This document shows, piece after piece, positions 3,187 to 8,538 of a DNA stretch of 32,000 bases. The DNA is from an uncultured archaeon (lineage in GTDB: Archaea > Asgardarchaeota > Thorarchaeia > Thorarchaeales > CAZPUN01), in the NCBI GenBank assembly GCA_964589775.1, contig CAZPUN010000050.1, forward strand, positions 4,102-36,101, written 5' to 3'. The notes under the pieces are model-generated. The model saw only the letters and a list, made by a program, of their open reading frames with translations, searched no databases and had not been told where the DNA came from. The stretch's first letter is position 1. The number at the start of each line of letters is the position of its first letter. The position numbers and the translations under genes were made by a program.

Positions 3187-5325
3187 TTATAAATCAAATT
3201 TTAGCCTCGTTCCGAATTCTGGAATTAGAACATCGTCTGGTGCTGAAGTTGCTGGCGTATGTACCATTACCTTTTTCCCTTTTAATTGGCTGACGAATTT
3301 TTCCAGTTTTGATGCTGATGAATGTGCGCTTAATCTTGCATAGAAGACACGAGGTGTTGTCTCGACTAATCCCTTGTGTATCCAATATCCGTATGTTCCT
3401 CTAGCAAGAAAGCCCGTGAATACTATTGCTGCTTCTTCATGTTCTTTATAATACTCAAATTGTTTGCGTGCCTCTCCTCCTTCTAACATGCCGCCTCCAG
3501 ACACAAGAATATCATCCTTTTTCAGTTCTTTTTCAGTTCTCAAAAGACCTCTGAATTTTCCTGAAACACCACTCATTTTTGTTATGCTTAATGCCATTCC
3601 GGATAGCAATACATTTCGTTCTCGTGAGATGCCGTACTGGTCTAACATCATTACGATCTCTTGTGCTCTTCCGAGTGCAAATGCAGGTATTATGACCGGT
3701 CCATAATTTTGTACGGCTTCTTTAATTACACTGACGGCTTGAAGTCTATCGAAATCTTCGCGTCCCCAATAAGTTCCATCGAAAATTGTAACATCTGCAT
3801 CTGTTGGCAATATTGCGCCTTCATACAAGAATGTATTATCTAAGTTAAAATCGCCCGTGTATAGTATTTTAAAGCCTTCAATATCAATTTCATAGGCAGC
3901 TGAGCCCGGTACATGCTTCGCATCAATAGGCCTTACGGTGACTCCCGGCGATACGATATATTCCTTGTCATATTCTAAAGATACGTATTTACGCTCTAAT
4001 TTATCAATATTCTTTGCTTTTATATTGTGTACTGGATCATCAATATCCTTTTTACGTTTGGCAGGAATTTGCGATACCTTCAAAGAATCGCGAAGCAACA
4101 TTTTTGAAATTACACCTGTAGGTCCAACACCCATCCATTTCTGGTCATAATATTCAAAGAGCGCTGGGAGTCCTCCAACATGATCAATATGTGCATGAGT
4201 TATCAGTATCGCATCCAAATTTTCAAGGTCCGGAGCCCATTTTGGAATCGATAGATGTGCGACTGAAAAACCGTAATCCAGTAATATAGCTCCATAATCC
4301 GTTTTAATCAAGATTCCGCTTCTTCCAATTCGCGGGCCGCCTAAGAATTCGATCTCAATATGTCTTATTTTTCCACTATATGCTAATGCAGGCATAACGC
4401 CCTTCAGTATTGGCTCAGGAACCTTACTGAAAACCTCATATGATAATGGTTCAATTTCTGGAGGATTTTCAAGTTTGTAGAGTCTAATCGGATACGGTAA
4501 ATTATTCTTTGATATTAATCCATATTCCTCATATTTTTTTGAGACCTTATCAAAAGCTTCTTCGAGTGTGAATTTTCCATTACTTTCAATTGAGCTATAG
4601 GCTTTATTTTCAAAATATTTGTAGGATATATGAACGATTCTTCTTGAAGTTTCTTTCACTTTATTATAAATGTAGTTAAATTTCATCTCGGAAAAAATTT
4701 CATCAAGGAATTCCCCTCGTCTGTTAATCAGATCTTTCAATCTAAACGTATCTGATTGGTATAGTATTTCACCATCAATATTGAATTTCTTGAGTACGTC
4801 AATGATATCTTTCTCTTGCATTATGGGGGTGCCTAAGAATGTCGTATATTCCCAGATCTTATTGACGAAATCTTCTGTTTCTTTCCAATCGTCAAAAAGA
4901 CCCAGCCATACAATATCTCGATTGATTTTTTTAATAGTTGCTTTACCTTTATGACCTGCCTTATATAGATTAATAATTACAATTCTAAAATCATCAATTG
5001 TTGATTTCTTAAGAAATATTAGATATGCCATTAAGTTCAGTACGTCTTTAACATATTCTTGTTTAATTTTACGTTTAAAGAGGAGCCTTTTTAATACATC
5101 TATGAGTTCAGTTCCCTCTTCATCATCAATTTCAAAAAGTGGAAATTCTCCAATCGGCTTTATTTGTAGAGCAAAATTAAATAATTTCTCGCCATTTGGG
5201 AACTGTTTTATTATGTTCATAAAAGTCTCGTCATTCGTAGCGTCATCGGGATTCAAATTTTTCAAGTGTTGATGGATATCACTCAATTTTCTCAGTTGCG
5301 GCTCGCTCATATTTTTCAACCACAT
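3187..5325 (-). CDS. Metallo-beta-lactamase / beta-CASP ribonuclease with long N-terminal extension
   Basis: LGG..IGRS, LLDYG, THAHIDH, HVPGS, YTGDF, DGTYW, PAFALGRAQE, SAH and VH motifs in the C-terminal ~390 aa. Alternative start at ATG 5310. Confidence 0.9.
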   Translation of the reverse strand: MWLKNMSEPQLRKLSDIHQHLKNLNPDDATNDETFMNIIKQFPNGEKLFNFALQIKPIGEFPLFEIDDEEGTELIDVLKRLLFKRKIKQEYVKDVLNLMAYLIFLKKSTIDDFRIVIINLYKAGHKGKATIKKINRDIVWLGLFDDWKETEDFVNKIWEYTTFLGTPIMQEKDIIDVLKKFNIDGEILYQSDTFRLKDLINRRGEFLDEIFSEMKFNYIYNKVKETSRRIVHISYKYFENKAYSSIESNGKFTLEEAFDKVSKKYEEYGLISKNNLPYPIRLYKLENPPEIEPLSYEVFSKVPEPILKGVMPALAYSGKIRHIEIEFLGGPRIGRSGILIKTDYGAILLDYGFSVAHLSIPKWAPDLENLDAILITHAHIDHVGGLPALFEYYDQKWMGVGPTGVISKMLLRDSLKVSQIPAKRKKDIDDPVHNIKAKNIDKLERKYVSLEYDKEYIVSPGVTVRPIDAKHVPGSAAYEIDIEGFKILYTGDFNLDNTFLYEGAILPTDADVTIFDGTYWGREDFDRLQAVSVIKEAVQNYGPVIIPAFALGRAQEIVMMLDQYGISRERNVLLSGMALSITKMSGVSGKFRGLLRTEKELKKDDILVSGGGMLEGGEARKQFEYYKEHEEAAIVFTGFLARGTYGYWIHKGLVETTPRVFYARLSAHSSASKLEKFVSQLKGKKVMVHTPATSAPDDVLIPEFGTRLKFDL

Positions 5326-5338
5326 TTTATTGTCTATT

Positions 5339-6388
5339 TCACTTTTTAATGCTATATATGCTAAACCTGCTATCTCTAAGCATTGTGCGTTTCGTAATTA
5401 GTCCTTGTTCCAGTAATAAAGATAATGCATATCGGACTGTACGCGGCGGTAATTTGCTTTCCTCAATCAATTCTCTTTGAGTTAATTTGCCCTCATACTC
5501 TAAGATTTTCAAAATTAACTTCGCACTTGGTGGAATATCCGTGGCAATATCAAATAAATCTATTTTTTGCTTGAGTTTGTCCTGAATTTCCGCAAGACTA
5601 CTCTTACTGAAAGTAATAAATTCTACAGGATTATCTGATTTCCAGATTTGGATCTCATTTGAGTTTAAGGACACGCGCTTCTGTCCATCAAGAACTACAG
5701 AAATTCCAGATGAGGACTCGATTTCGGTTATTTTTATTTTTGATTCATCTGGTACAATTAGTGCTCTGCGTGATAGATTTATTGAATTTACCGGTGTAAT
5801 TCCGAAAACTGCTGAATTTGTACCAATGATTGGTCCTCCTGCCGATAGTGAATAGCCTGTAGAACCCGTAGGCGTTGTCACTATTACACCATCTGCGCCA
5901 TCTCGCCACATGCGTTCATCATTAATAATCAGCGTATAGCGGATTAATGTAGCACTCTTTTTCGAAAAAATCGTTAAGTCATTAAGTAATGGTGGACACT
6001 TTGACCCATTAATAACGCATTGCAATCGTGTTCTTTTTTCTATGGACCATTTCCTTTCGCTAATTAGTTTTGAAATTGTCTCTAATTCTGCAATATTTAT
6101 TTCACTTAAGAAGCCCGCTTCATTGATTGGAGAAACTGGCAGAATTTTGATTTTCTCGTCAGGTCTGCTGAGTAAGAAATTTAGAATGAACTTATCGTTG
6201 CCGATTAAAATATACATGTCCGCTTTAATTTCGTCATTTGGTAATCCTTTCTCATTTACTTTATCAGCCGCACATTTGTTTAATATGACCTCTACTCCTT
6301 CCTCTTCCAGGGCAAGCACGGCTTCTTTTAGTGGTTCAGCGCATTTGGCTTCCGATTGTGTAAGAATTCCGACCTTCAAGAGAGCCAC
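5339..6388 (-). CDS. NAD kinase-fold protein fused to C-terminal MarR-like winged HTH
   Basis: GFL, LND and DGVIVTTPTGSTGYSLSAGGP motifs present; GGDG(T) replaced by GNDKF. C-terminal PPSAKLILKILEYEGKLTQRELIEESKLPPRTVRYALSLL...RDSR..IY is a wHTH. Confidence 0.88.
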   Translation of the reverse strand: MALLKVGILTQSEAKCAEPLKEAVLALEEEGVEVILNKCAADKVNEKGLPNDEIKADMYILIGNDKFILNFLLSRPDEKIKILPVSPINEAGFLSEINIAELETISKLISERKWSIEKRTRLQCVINGSKCPPLLNDLTIFSKKSATLIRYTLIINDERMWRDGADGVIVTTPTGSTGYSLSAGGPIIGTNSAVFGITPVNSINLSRRALIVPDESKIKITEIESSSGISVVLDGQKRVSLNSNEIQIWKSDNPVEFITFSKSSLAEIQDKLKQKIDLFDIATDIPPSAKLILKILEYEGKLTQRELIEESKLPPRTVRYALSLLLEQGLITKRTMLRDSRFSIYSIKK

Positions 6389-6450
6389 CTTTCTTTAATA
6401 ACTTGATGCAAACTCATTCTTTAATATTTCGGAGTTTTTCCAATATATTT

Positions 6451-6467
6451 GAGGTAAAAATTGCCTC
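6451..6467. promoter_or_regulatory. Inverted repeat GAGGTAA-AAA-TTGCCTC, candidate operator between divergent NADK-HTH and nadA
   Basis: 7-bp arms with 1 mismatch, near the centre of the 146-bp divergent intergenic region. Confidence 0.4.
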
Positions 6468-6534
6468 TTTTTTAATGTTTTTGCTCTCCTTGCCAATTGA
6501 GTCTTTCTTAAAAAGGAACAAATAAAATTAACAT

Positions 6535-7497
6535 ATGGGACTGAAAATGACTTTATCTGAGTTACAACGAGAAATAATCGAGCTAAAGAAGAAAAGAAAC
6601 GCTCTTATACTTGCGCATTCGTACCAACCAATTGAGATTCAGCAAATTGCAGATCTTGTAGATGATAGTCTAGCACTTGCACGAGCTGCCGAGCGAGATA
6701 CATCACATGATATGATCTTACTTGCCGGTGTCGATTTCATGGCTGAAGGCGCTGCAATTCTGAATCCACAAATCCCTGTATATGTTCCGGAACCCAATGC
6801 TGGATGTGTCTTAGCCAAGTTTGGAGATGTCGAATCAATTTTACAAGCAAAGGCTGAGCATCCAGATGCTCCTGTCGTTCTTTATGTAAATACTACGGCA
6901 GAAGCAAAAGCTCATGCGGATATTATTTGTACTTCTCGAAATGCTGTAGATGTTGTTAGAAGCTTAAATAGTGATATTGTCTTGTTTGGACCTGATGTAA
7001 ATCTTGCTGAGTTCGTAAGGCGTCAAGTTCCTGAAATTGAGATCATTGATATAAATCCAATTGGTCATTGTTCTGTGCATCAATTTATTTCTGTAGATGA
7101 TATATTGCGGCATAAGAAAGCGTATCCTGAGGCCGAAGTGATAGTACATCCCGAATGCCCACCTAAAGTTCAAGATATTGCTGATTATGTTGCCTCAACA
7201 AGTCTGATGATCGAACGAGTGAAAAACTCTGATAAGAATGTATTTATAATCGGCACAGAAATCGGACTCGTGGAACGGCTTCAGCTTGAAAATCCCGATA
7301 AACTAATTATAGCTGCTAAGAGTAATGCTATTTGTGTAAATATGAAGAAGAACACCCTTGAGAAGATATTATTTGTGCTCAAAGAGCTACCCGAAAGTCA
7401 TCGCGTAAGCGTTCCTGAGGCTATTGCTGAAAAGGCACTTCAGGCATTAAAACGCATGACGCAAATATATACGCATGTTTCAGTTAAAACAAAATAA
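6535..7497 (+). CDS. nadA: Quinolinate synthase A
   Basis: LAHSYQ, DSLAL, GVDFMAE, YVNT, HPEC, GTEIG motifs and three [4Fe-4S] cysteines (AGC, GHCSVH, AICVNMK). Alternative start at 6547. Confidence 0.96.
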   Translation: MGLKMTLSELQREIIELKKKRNALILAHSYQPIEIQQIADLVDDSLALARAAERDTSHDMILLAGVDFMAEGAAILNPQIPVYVPEPNAGCVLAKFGDVESILQAKAEHPDAPVVLYVNTTAEAKAHADIICTSRNAVDVVRSLNSDIVLFGPDVNLAEFVRRQVPEIEIIDINPIGHCSVHQFISVDDILRHKKAYPEAEVIVHPECPPKVQDIADYVASTSLMIERVKNSDKNVFIIGTEIGLVERLQLENPDKLIIAAKSNAICVNMKKNTLEKILFVLKELPESHRVSVPEAIAEKALQALKRMTQIYTHVSVKTK

Positions 7498-7563
7498 TTT
7501 TTTCTCTTTTTTTATGATACATTAATAAATAAGAAATTACATTTATTTTAACGGGTATGGGCA

Positions 7564-8538
7564 TTGACTGAAAAATTTCAAGAGTTAGTTGAAAAAATTG
7601 AAGTATTTCTCTTTAGAAACGATGGAGTCTGCATATTATCGAAAACCAAAAGGTCTCCAGAATTATTTACGAGCATGCTAGCTGCAATTGAAGCCTTTAC
7701 ACATACGGTCTCCGGTCTCGGTGCTGAAGAAGTAACTATGGGTGATAATAGAATTAATTACTCAAGAAATGGAGATATCGTCTGTGCTGTAATAACGCCT
7801 GAGTCTTTTGATCCGCACATTGGGAACGCAATCTCAAAATCTATCGCTGATATTTTTGTTTCAAAATATGGCTCATATCTTGCATTTTGGAAAGGCAATC
7901 TGGATGATTTTAGCGATTTTTCAACCGAGATCGATGATATAATCCATTCTGTTCTTTCTTCGTTTGGTGAGAAAATTGTATCTTCCCACATAGTATCAGT
8001 TCATGAACTTATACGAATGTATGGTGAAGACGTTTCACAAATTCTCTATAGTATTATCATGAATATTCCTATTGTTATTTATGGTGATCGTAAGAAAGTA
8101 GAAGGAATAATTAATCAACTTTCCAACTTTTTCATAAAGGATGCGCCCAACCTATCATGGGTAGAACCTGAACTGGTAAATGAGCTCATAAAATCTCATG
8201 ATTTCGTAATTATTGGTAGCTCAGTTCCACCCACCGATACTACAAATGTCTTGATTCTATCTACTAATAAAGTTGAAAATAAATTAACTGAAAATAAATA
8301 TCTCCAAAAAATTGCGAATGTGTTATTAGAGAATTTAGATGATTGGAATGATGAAGAGGCTCACAATTTTCTGTCTATGAAAAAGGCTGAATTCTTTAAA
8401 TGTGTGGAACTAGCCGAAGAATTAATTAGCAAATACAATTTTTCTGTTGAAGAGTTAAGCAAAATTCTTGAAATCTCGGAAGATATGTTGTTCCTTGTTT
8501 ATGCAGTAGCAAAACGAAATATTGAATCTTCGCAATAA
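7564..8538 (+). CDS. Longin + DENN-like domain protein
   Basis: N-terminal longin (VFLFRNDGVCI...LFTSMLAAIEAF...WKGNLDDFSDF), then a cDENN-like pattern (ILYSIIMNIPIVIYG...IINQLSNFF...FVIIG...VLIL) and a helical tail. Confidence 0.65.
   Translation: MTEKFQELVEKIEVFLFRNDGVCILSKTKRSPELFTSMLAAIEAFTHTVSGLGAEEVTMGDNRINYSRNGDIVCAVITPESFDPHIGNAISKSIADIFVSKYGSYLAFWKGNLDDFSDFSTEIDDIIHSVLSSFGEKIVSSHIVSVHELIRMYGEDVSQILYSIIMNIPIVIYGDRKKVEGIINQLSNFFIKDAPNLSWVEPELVNELIKSHDFVIIGSSVPPTDTTNVLILSTNKVENKLTENKYLQKIANVLLENLDDWNDEEAHNFLSMKKAEFFKCVELAEELISKYNFSVEELSKILEISEDMLFLVYAVAKRNIESSQ

Follow-up and report, generated by a model that had tools for sequence, protein, structure and literature searches.

The fusion gene and nadA

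The DNA analysed here, called the window throughout, is a 32-kb stretch of contig CAZPUN010000050.1 and belongs to a 2.16-Mb genome (96.8% complete) of an Asgard, Thorarchaeota-like archaeon. A gene that joins a NAD kinase (NADK) fold to a C-terminal winged helix-turn-helix (wHTH) lies head-to-head with nadA, the gene for quinolinate synthase, and is considered below as a candidate transcriptional regulator of NAD synthesis. The features of the locus are listed in Table 1. The nadA product scores above the NCBIfam equivalog cut-off, and the 146 bp between the two genes compare with 140-177 bp in relatives of two other families (f2 and f15, see below). An earlier note on this DNA had described an altered catalytic motif, retained NAD-binding motifs, a fused wHTH and the head-to-head arrangement with nadA, and the comparisons below bear out these descriptions.

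Table 1. Features of the fusion-nadA locus, with positions counted from the first letter of the window and amino acids (aa) numbered in the fusion protein.
Feature	Position	Strand	Basis
NAD-kinase-fold/wHTH fusion gene	5339-6388	-	349 aa, GTG start, stop codon included; open reading frame (ORF) list, Pfam, homologues
NAD-kinase-like two-domain body, aa 1-261, proposed ligand-sensing module	5606-6388	-	AlphaFold2 model, Foldseek, NCBIfam
GNDKF, aa 63-67, at the place of the NADK catalytic/ATP-loop motif GGDGT	6188-6202	-	alignment to the genome's own canonical NADK and to the family
N136-D137, NE/D motif of the NAD site	5978-5983	-	Asn column N136 invariant in alignments A1/A2
TPTGSTGYSLSAGGP, aa 172-186, Gly-rich NAD-binding motif, retained	5831-5875	-	family alignment columns
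Linker helix, aa 262-283, joining both modules	5540-5605	-	pLDDT <50 at aa 262-282, predicted helical
C-terminal wHTH, aa 284-349, most conserved part of the family	5342-5539	-	HTH_24 match, signature
nadA, quinolinate synthase, proposed regulated target	6535-7497	+	PF02445 348 bits; NCBIfam NF006878 358 bits vs cut-off 294
Divergent intergenic control region, 146 bp	6389-6534		sequence
Putative TATA box of the regulator gene, AAATATTAAA	6420-6428	-	counterpart of the conserved CTTAAAT left of O1 in f2
Putative operator O1, GGTAAAAATTGCC, consensus GGCAA-N3-TTGCC	6453-6465		all 17 nadA-linked intergenic regions
Putative operator O2, degenerate left arm and conserved TTGCC (6490-6494)	6482-6494		exactly +29 bp from O1, nearer nadA
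Conserved block AATTGAGTCTTTC between O2 and TATA box	6495-6507	+	f1/f2 consensus g-t-TTGAGAtTTc; register-preserving comparison, 14 intergenic regions
Putative nadA TATA box TTAAAAA	6508-6514	+	21-27 nt before ATG; archaeal promoter consensus
Beta-CASP/metallo-beta-lactamase (MBL) nuclease gene	3187-5325	-	Pfam Lactamase_B and Beta-Casp; 13 nt downstream of regulator, same strand

Domain architecture of the fusion protein

Pfam assigns NAD_kinase_C (PF20143) to aa 135-259 of the fusion (E 9e-28, 97 bits) and a winged helix to aa 284-334, where HTH_24 scores 33.5 bits (cut-off 21.9) and MarR_2 26.5 bits, just under its cut-off of 27. The N-domain model PF01513 has no match on the window's protein, and some other family members do match it. 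Of the NCBIfam NADK models, the best give 148-151 bits, about half of their cut-offs of 304-326. An AlphaFold2 model built from a 24-sequence family alignment has a mean predicted local distance difference test (pLDDT) of 85 and consists of a two-domain body, a helical linker of low confidence and a compact wHTH. When this predicted structure was compared with the PDB by Foldseek, the top 50 matches were all NADKs, with E values of 1e-25 to 1e-19 and template modelling (TM) scores by target of 0.78-0.86 over about 280 residues, and a sequence search of the PDB likewise returns NAD kinases. For the wHTH alone the nearest solved domains are those of Pyrococcus Lrp/AsnC-type regulators, as weak matches (E 0.004-0.05). 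A HTH_24/MarR-like winged helix is thus shared with Lrp/AsnC- or MarR-type regulators, but the RAM/ACT domain or the MarR helix bundle of those proteins is not: the fusion has no AsnC_trans_reg (RAM/ACT) and no full MarR match, and its remainder is of the NADK fold. A two-copy complex prediction with alignment A2 and NAD included scored 0.10 and speaks neither for nor against a homodimer.

Conservation is concentrated in the NAD site and the wHTH. Invariant across the family alignment are N136, D166-G167, TPTGST.Y..S.GG and DGQ, and within TPTGSTGYSLSAGGP the invariant or near-invariant columns are P173, G175, S176, T177, Y179, S182, G184 and G185. The stretches SATL.RY and VNS.N..RR are conserved and specific to the family, and the wHTH carries the near-invariant signature PPSAK...LPPRTVRYAL...RDSR..Y.

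At aa 63-67, GNDKF aligns to the GGDGT of a canonical NADK encoded elsewhere in the same genome; two of the three glycines are replaced and the G-x-D core retains its Asp. Of 127 archaeal NADKs, 124 have GGDGT, a motif linked to catalysis (PMC3769651). On its catalytic motif and on the curated thresholds the fusion fails membership of the canonical NAD kinases, and it keeps their fold and their NAD-site motifs. The genome holds three genes of the NADK fold, namely the fusion, a canonical NADK of 286 aa on contig C21 with GGDGT and TPTGSTAYALSAGG, and a 'long' paralogue on contig C13. With the separate canonical NADK, whose existence the earlier note had put up for checking, present elsewhere in the genome, the fusion is dispensable for making NADP and is probably a sensor rather than a kinase; it is probably not the cellular NAD kinase, and its altered motif suggests that kinase activity may have been lost. 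The 'long' paralogue (L003:799-1920, 373 aa) has an intact GGDGT, and its type, also seen in L097-L099, is a separate long-branched clade in Asgard genomes (support 100/100).

Family distribution and decay of the catalytic motif

More than 120 full-length homologues were found, 336-400 aa long and 40-47% identical, nearly all from Thorarchaeota or 'Promethearchaeota' metagenome-assembled genomes (MAGs). They are named variously as wHTH regulator, MarR, NAD+ kinase or sugar kinase, and fusions annotated as kinases, which the earlier note had mentioned for other archaea, are indeed among them. A profile search covered 301 Asgard genomes, whose families are labelled f1, f2 and so on; the window belongs to f1, and f2 is the other family of its order. 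Full-length fusions occur in f1, in most f2 genomes and in f5, f8, f15, f16 and f20, and part of the f14 and f22 genomes have them as well; the large families f9, f12 and f24 showed short canonical NADKs only. Outside Asgard, clusters of the ESM Atlas that combine NAD_kinase_C with HTH_24 are labelled Nitrososphaerota and Thermoproteota, and one match is named as a protein of a Thermoprotei MAG.

Degenerate forms of GGDGT are found throughout the family: GSD[RK] and GGDR in f2, GNDKF in the window, GDDGV in f15 and GRDRD in f20. The Asp is lost in f16 (GGAAT/GGAAN), f5 has GDTGT and GGTGT, and distant members have GSDK, GKDGD, GDDKT, GEDRD and GGDDF. A single member, from the f8 genome G007, has GGDGT intact. 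In the kinase-domain tree the window's protein groups with f2 (support 96/93), then with f15 and f8. Within this clade the members outside f1 and f2 have an intact (f8) or nearly intact (f15) motif, a pattern consistent with decay of the motif after the fusion arose. In most members the last glycine of GGDG has given way to Arg/Lys, and this residue could, as a matter of speculation, contact a phosphate of the ligand.

The wHTH signature also occurs, as PPSAK...LPPRTVRYAL...DARQSLY, in a set of proteins of about 200 aa (P0140-P0157), one of them from a Methanotrichaceae MAG. Their N-terminal region is unrelated, rich in Cys and Ser and possibly secreted or membrane-bound. Judged by this signature, the putative DNA-binding module is common to proteins beyond the NADK fusions.

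Conserved gene neighbourhood

Linkage to nad genes, which the earlier note had left to be examined, was followed in 20 loci, each taken with 8 kb on either side, that come from four Asgard families other than that of the window. In 16 of these 20 the fusion and nadA are divergent (12/12 f2, 1/1 f15 and 3/3 f5). Another 30 f2 loci were added, 28 of them with enough upstream sequence, and the divergent pairing recurs in 27 of these 28. Some other lineages have NAD salvage genes beside the fusion instead. The f16 fusion adjoins an archaeal-type nicotinate phosphoribosyltransferase (NAPRTase) and a PncA-like isochorismatase, and in f20 the fusion stands directly upstream of NAPRTase on the same strand; nadA was not found in the two f20 genomes searched (G066, G095). 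In f8 (L049:5379-7626, G007:C38) the divergent neighbours are an NfnAB-like NAD(P) oxidoreductase pair, made up of a DHODB-type Fe-S/FAD subunit and a glutamate-synthase-small-chain-like NAD(P) oxidoreductase, which hints at a link to NADH/NADPH exchange.

Among distant relatives, P0138 and P0134 are divergent from nadA-nadX and from a transporter of the major facilitator superfamily (MFS), respectively, and P0129 has NAPRTase downstream. In the P0134 locus (L074:4583-5887, from a Thermoprotei-labelled MAG) the transporter, an MFS/Sugar_tr protein, lies opposite the fusion with a perfect operator motif between them. By analogy with NiaP in bacterial NiaR regulons, it is a candidate transporter of niacin or of another NAD precursor.

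A conserved two-site element in front of nadA

The palindrome GAGGTAA-N3-TTGCCTC that the earlier note had placed between the two genes is present at 6451-6467, with six of seven arm positions complementary, but what is conserved is shorter, the 13-mer GGCAA-N3-TTGCC (O1), and is accompanied by a second site (O2) 29 bp away. The core GG(C/T)AA-N3-TTGCC occurs once in the window, against 0.02 occurrences expected from shuffles, and GGYAA-N3-TTGCC or its mirror occurs three times in the whole 2.16-Mb genome. With up to one mismatch to GGCAA-N3-TTGCC there are 41 sites in the genome, so that about 0.003 would be expected per 146-bp region. When the 17 nadA-linked intergenic regions are turned the same way, O1 is present in all of them; 11 copies are perfect and 6 have a single mismatch. 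Across 337 kb of context, the 4.4 kb of nadA intergenic DNA account for every one of the 11 perfect sites and for 16 of the 25 that have one mismatch, an enrichment of about 230-fold.

The order of elements is fixed in f1 and f2, and runs from O1 over a 16-nt spacer, O2, the g-t-TTGAGAtTTc block and a TTAAAA box to the nadA start some 20-45 nt further on. The +29 offset of O2 holds in 11 of 12 f2 loci, and at that position L046, the twelfth, retains just the TTGCC half. The AATTGAGTCTTTC block may represent the transcription factor B (TFB) recognition element (BRE) or else an extension of O2. (A/G)TTAAAA is conserved about 14 nt after O2 in relatives, and from the position of the window's own box the nadA transcript would be leaderless or have a very short leader. 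On the other side of O1, AAATATTAAA might perhaps serve as the regulator's TATA box. The corresponding TATA-like element of the regulator (CTTAAAT, in f2) lies anywhere from 5 to 45 nt from O1. Since the geometry towards the nadA TATA box is fixed and that towards the regulator's is variable, the sites appear positioned for the nadA promoter.

Co-occurrence of the putative operator and the proposed regulator

Perfect copies of the 13-mer number 2-4 per genome in five other genomes, and every copy outside a nadA promoter is intragenic. The motif was also met at nadA genes that are unlinked to the fusion. In the Thorarchaeota-like genome G027 a second nadA (L064:1310-3620, C34), 58% identical and away from the regulator, has a perfect O1 and an O2 at +29, and in G007 an O1 with one mismatch lies some 150 nt upstream of the nadA gene, which is likewise unlinked. 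At L078 the DNA between the fusion and nadA-nadX has a perfect site and, 29 bp nearer to nadA (spacing by eye), a half-site GGCAA, at L074 the perfect site already mentioned separates the fusion from the MFS gene, and at L076 GGCAATAATTGCT lies between the fusion and NAPRTase. Ten of ten Asgard genomes without the fusion had no site (up to one mismatch) within 1.5 kb of nadA. The f16 and f20 loci beside NAPRTase or the PncA-like gene showed no convincing GGCAA-N3-TTGCC, only scattered half-sites, and a nadX-nadA-nadC operon in G041 had no site in the 3.9 kb examined. The second nadA of G027 adjoins, divergently, genes for a cysteine desulfurase and IscU-like Fe-S assembly, which suggests that nadA and Fe-S supply are there under one control region.

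Several further sites in the window's genome were discarded as members of a regulon. The only other perfect site (C20:30030) sits between two convergent gene ends, a near-site on C43 is inside the L13 gene, and one-mismatch intergenic sites upstream of an oxidoreductase beta subunit and of a small heat-shock-like gene look like chance. Aspartate dehydrogenase (nadX) was not found in this genome, which uses NadB.

Function of the fusion and alternative explanations

Domain architecture, the degenerate catalytic motif, conserved synteny, the co-occurring operator and the separate canonical NADK are observed, and they support what the earlier note had proposed, a transcription factor for de novo NAD synthesis. 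The gene probably encodes such a factor, whose sensor module is a former NAD kinase; that this protein itself binds the operator, which ligand it takes, the sign of its regulation and its oligomeric state are what we infer. Several points weigh against this interpretation. Binding of DNA and of a nucleotide by this protein is a prediction, O1 of the window has T for C, and O2 of the window is only a half-site. The motif was found upstream of neither nadB (C55) nor nadC (C43) in the window's genome, where the earlier note had suggested scanning for the palindrome. With the motif missing there, the local regulon appears to comprise nadA and the regulator's own gene, and perhaps the beta-CASP gene 13 nt downstream. 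In the kinase-domain tree, moreover, the fusions do not come out as a single clade distinct from canonical NADKs, and with its backbone unresolved a single origin of the fusion is possible, not shown. The remaining points concern catalysis: the conserved Asp of G-x-D makes residual kinase activity conceivable in the window's protein, G007, whose fusion has an intact GGDGT, shows no other short canonical NADK, and three of four f20 genomes (87-91% complete) show no NADK homologue besides the fusion. In these f20 genomes the kinase may still be the fusion; otherwise NADP would have to be made or acquired by another route. The f20 genomes concerned are G066, G095 and G042 (small, fusion motif GRDRD).

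It follows from the G007 and f20 cases that parts of the family may be bifunctional and that 'kinase-dead' is not to be generalised. For the window's protein it is nevertheless unlikely that the fusion is enzyme and regulator at once, as RbkR, BirA and NadR are (PMC5397151), that is, an active NAD/NADH kinase which binds the operator and has its substrate or product as effector. Retention of the catalytic Asp in most members, the window's included, and matches of some members to PF01513 speak for it together with the f8 and f20 genomes just named, but the window's GNDKF has two of three glycines replaced, its protein has no PF01513 match and reaches only some 150 bits on NCBIfam NADK equivalogs with cut-offs above 300, and a canonical GGDGT enzyme is encoded on contig C21; in other lineages the Asp is lost altogether (GGAA, GGTGT). 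That the protein is an ordinary NAD kinase paralogue, its wHTH serving protein-protein contacts or being non-regulatory and its place beside nadA reflecting metabolic clustering, is hardly credible. Databases do name many members 'NAD+ kinase' or 'sugar kinase', and clustering of pathway genes is common without any regulation of one by another, but no part of the protein is better conserved than the wHTH, the catalytic motif has degenerated, and a palindrome fit for a dimeric wHTH co-occurs with the gene, also in contexts other than nadA.

We also consider it very improbable that a transcription factor acting at the operator senses something other than NAD(P), such as ATP, polyphosphate, quinolinate, nicotinic acid mononucleotide (NaMN), nicotinic acid adenine dinucleotide (NaAD), niacin or ADP-ribose, or has in its body only an oligomerisation scaffold. 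The NAD-site residues (NE/D, DG, TPTGSTAY..GG) are invariant and it is the phosphate-donor loop that decays, even though the Arg/Lys in the former ATP loop (G-S-D-R/K), with SATL.RY and VNS.N..RR, suggests a remodelled pocket and the effectors of known NAD regulators do vary, being niacin for NiaR and ADP-ribose or NAD for NrtR (PMC2330245, PMC2330246).

Proposed mechanism

As a transcription factor with a former NAD kinase as its sensor, the protein would form a dimer or tetramer, like NAD kinases, and its C-terminal winged helices would bind O1 and the half-conserved O2, which would be placed between the two divergent core promoters and just upstream of the nadA TATA box. A pyridine nucleotide would bind in the retained NAD pocket, NAD(H) or NADP(H) being the likeliest, and occupancy of the pocket would alter DNA binding. 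Expression of nadA, and probably the regulator's own transcript, would in this way be tuned to the NAD(P) pool, giving feedback on the committed iron-sulfur step of de novo NAD synthesis. Archaeal factors that bind upstream of BRE/TATA usually activate, and those that bind over or downstream of TATA usually repress (Ptr2 and TrmBL1 are examples). The constant distance of the sites upstream of BRE/TATA favours a model in which the ligand-free form activates nadA and the nucleotide releases or inactivates the protein, and repression would be the alternative; O2 ends about 14 nt from the TATA box, and interference with TFB is possible as well.

A wider interpretation, which we advance tentatively and regard as possible but rather doubtful as a whole, would make the fusions an ancient archaeal transcription factor family spread over several phyla and the principal regulator of NAD homeostasis there. 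A tetrameric former NAD kinase would read NAD(P) through its old substrate pocket, the Arg/Lys of the ATP loop would possibly discriminate the 2'-phosphate of NADP, and the ligand-free form would activate nadA or salvage genes from the two-site 29-bp element. It would be the first archaeal NAD regulon to be described and the first sensor of the NADK fold.

Relation to known regulators

How bacteria control NAD synthesis at the level of transcription is well documented, with NadR, NiaR and NrtR as the regulators. A literature search, with most subscription journals out of reach, found neither a NADK-wHTH regulator nor an archaeal NAD regulon described. One close likeness in design is to RbkR (Rodionova et al. 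2017, PMC5397151), an archaeal regulator of a cofactor pathway in which a kinase of that pathway is fused to a wHTH, and which itself came to light in genome comparisons, by a palindromic operator conserved in front of biosynthesis genes. RbkR differs in having the fold of a CTP-dependent riboflavin kinase, compared with the NADK/DAGK/PFK-like fold here, in serving the flavin rather than the NAD pathway, and in combining an N-terminal HTH with an active enzyme, whereas the fusion has a C-terminal wHTH and, in the window's copy, a degenerate catalytic motif. NrtR (Rodionov et al. 2008, PMC2330246) likewise has an effector domain derived from an enzyme, often catalytically impaired, with a C-terminal wHTH, and controls genes of NAD de novo synthesis and salvage beside which it is often encoded; it is however a bacterial repressor of the Nudix fold, released by ADP-ribose or NAD-related ligands, and has no sequence relationship to the fusion. 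NadR and NiaR (PMC2330245, PMC7221760) resemble the proposed system in the feedback on nadA/nadB and salvage genes through a DNA-binding protein that binds pyridines, NadR with enzyme domains of its own. Both are bacterial, NadR combining a HTH with NMN adenylyltransferase and ribosylnicotinamide kinase and NiaR a HTH with a 3H domain, and these folds are not found in the fusion.

Pfam and NCBIfam scans of the fusion gave no Nudix, 3H, NMN adenylyltransferase/ribosylnicotinamide kinase or riboflavin kinase domain. Sharing no sensor domain with NrtR, NiaR, NadR or RbkR, it is an analogue of these regulators and not a member of their families. To canonical NadK/PpnK (A. fulgidus 1SUW/1Z0S, P. 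aeruginosa 7QVS) the likeness is in the modelled two-domain fold, with the TM scores given above, and in the NAD-site motifs, but the fusion has GNDKF for GGDGT, about 90 aa more in its linker and wHTH, and an operator link to nadA.

If the regulatory function holds, it would fill an archaeal gap in the regulation of NAD synthesis, add the NAD kinase fold to the enzymes recycled as ligand sensors, and correct a widespread annotation error in the 'NAD+ kinase' and 'sugar kinase' labels. The family would also be a natural series from probably bifunctional members with intact GGDGT to members that are probably pure sensors, useful for studying how enzymes evolve into regulators.

Flanking genes and minor observations

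Directly 3' of nadA lies an ORF of 324 aa (7564-8538, + strand) with no significant Pfam family and a sub-threshold match to partial_CstF as its sole hit. An Rfam scan of the intergenic region gave no family at gathering score and one weak match (E 0.42). No RNA sequencing run matching window positions 5000-7600 was listed; two DNA runs did match, one of them a hydrothermal-vent metagenome from which the window's DNA probably comes.

The beta-CASP/MBL nuclease gene encodes 712 aa, with an N-terminal region of about 320 aa that has no Pfam match. The order of regulator followed by beta-CASP gene was not seen in the f15, f5, f16, f20 or f8 loci. It is kept in 12 of 12 f2 loci and in nearly all of the 30 further f2 loci, and the nuclease gene is possibly co-transcribed with the regulator.

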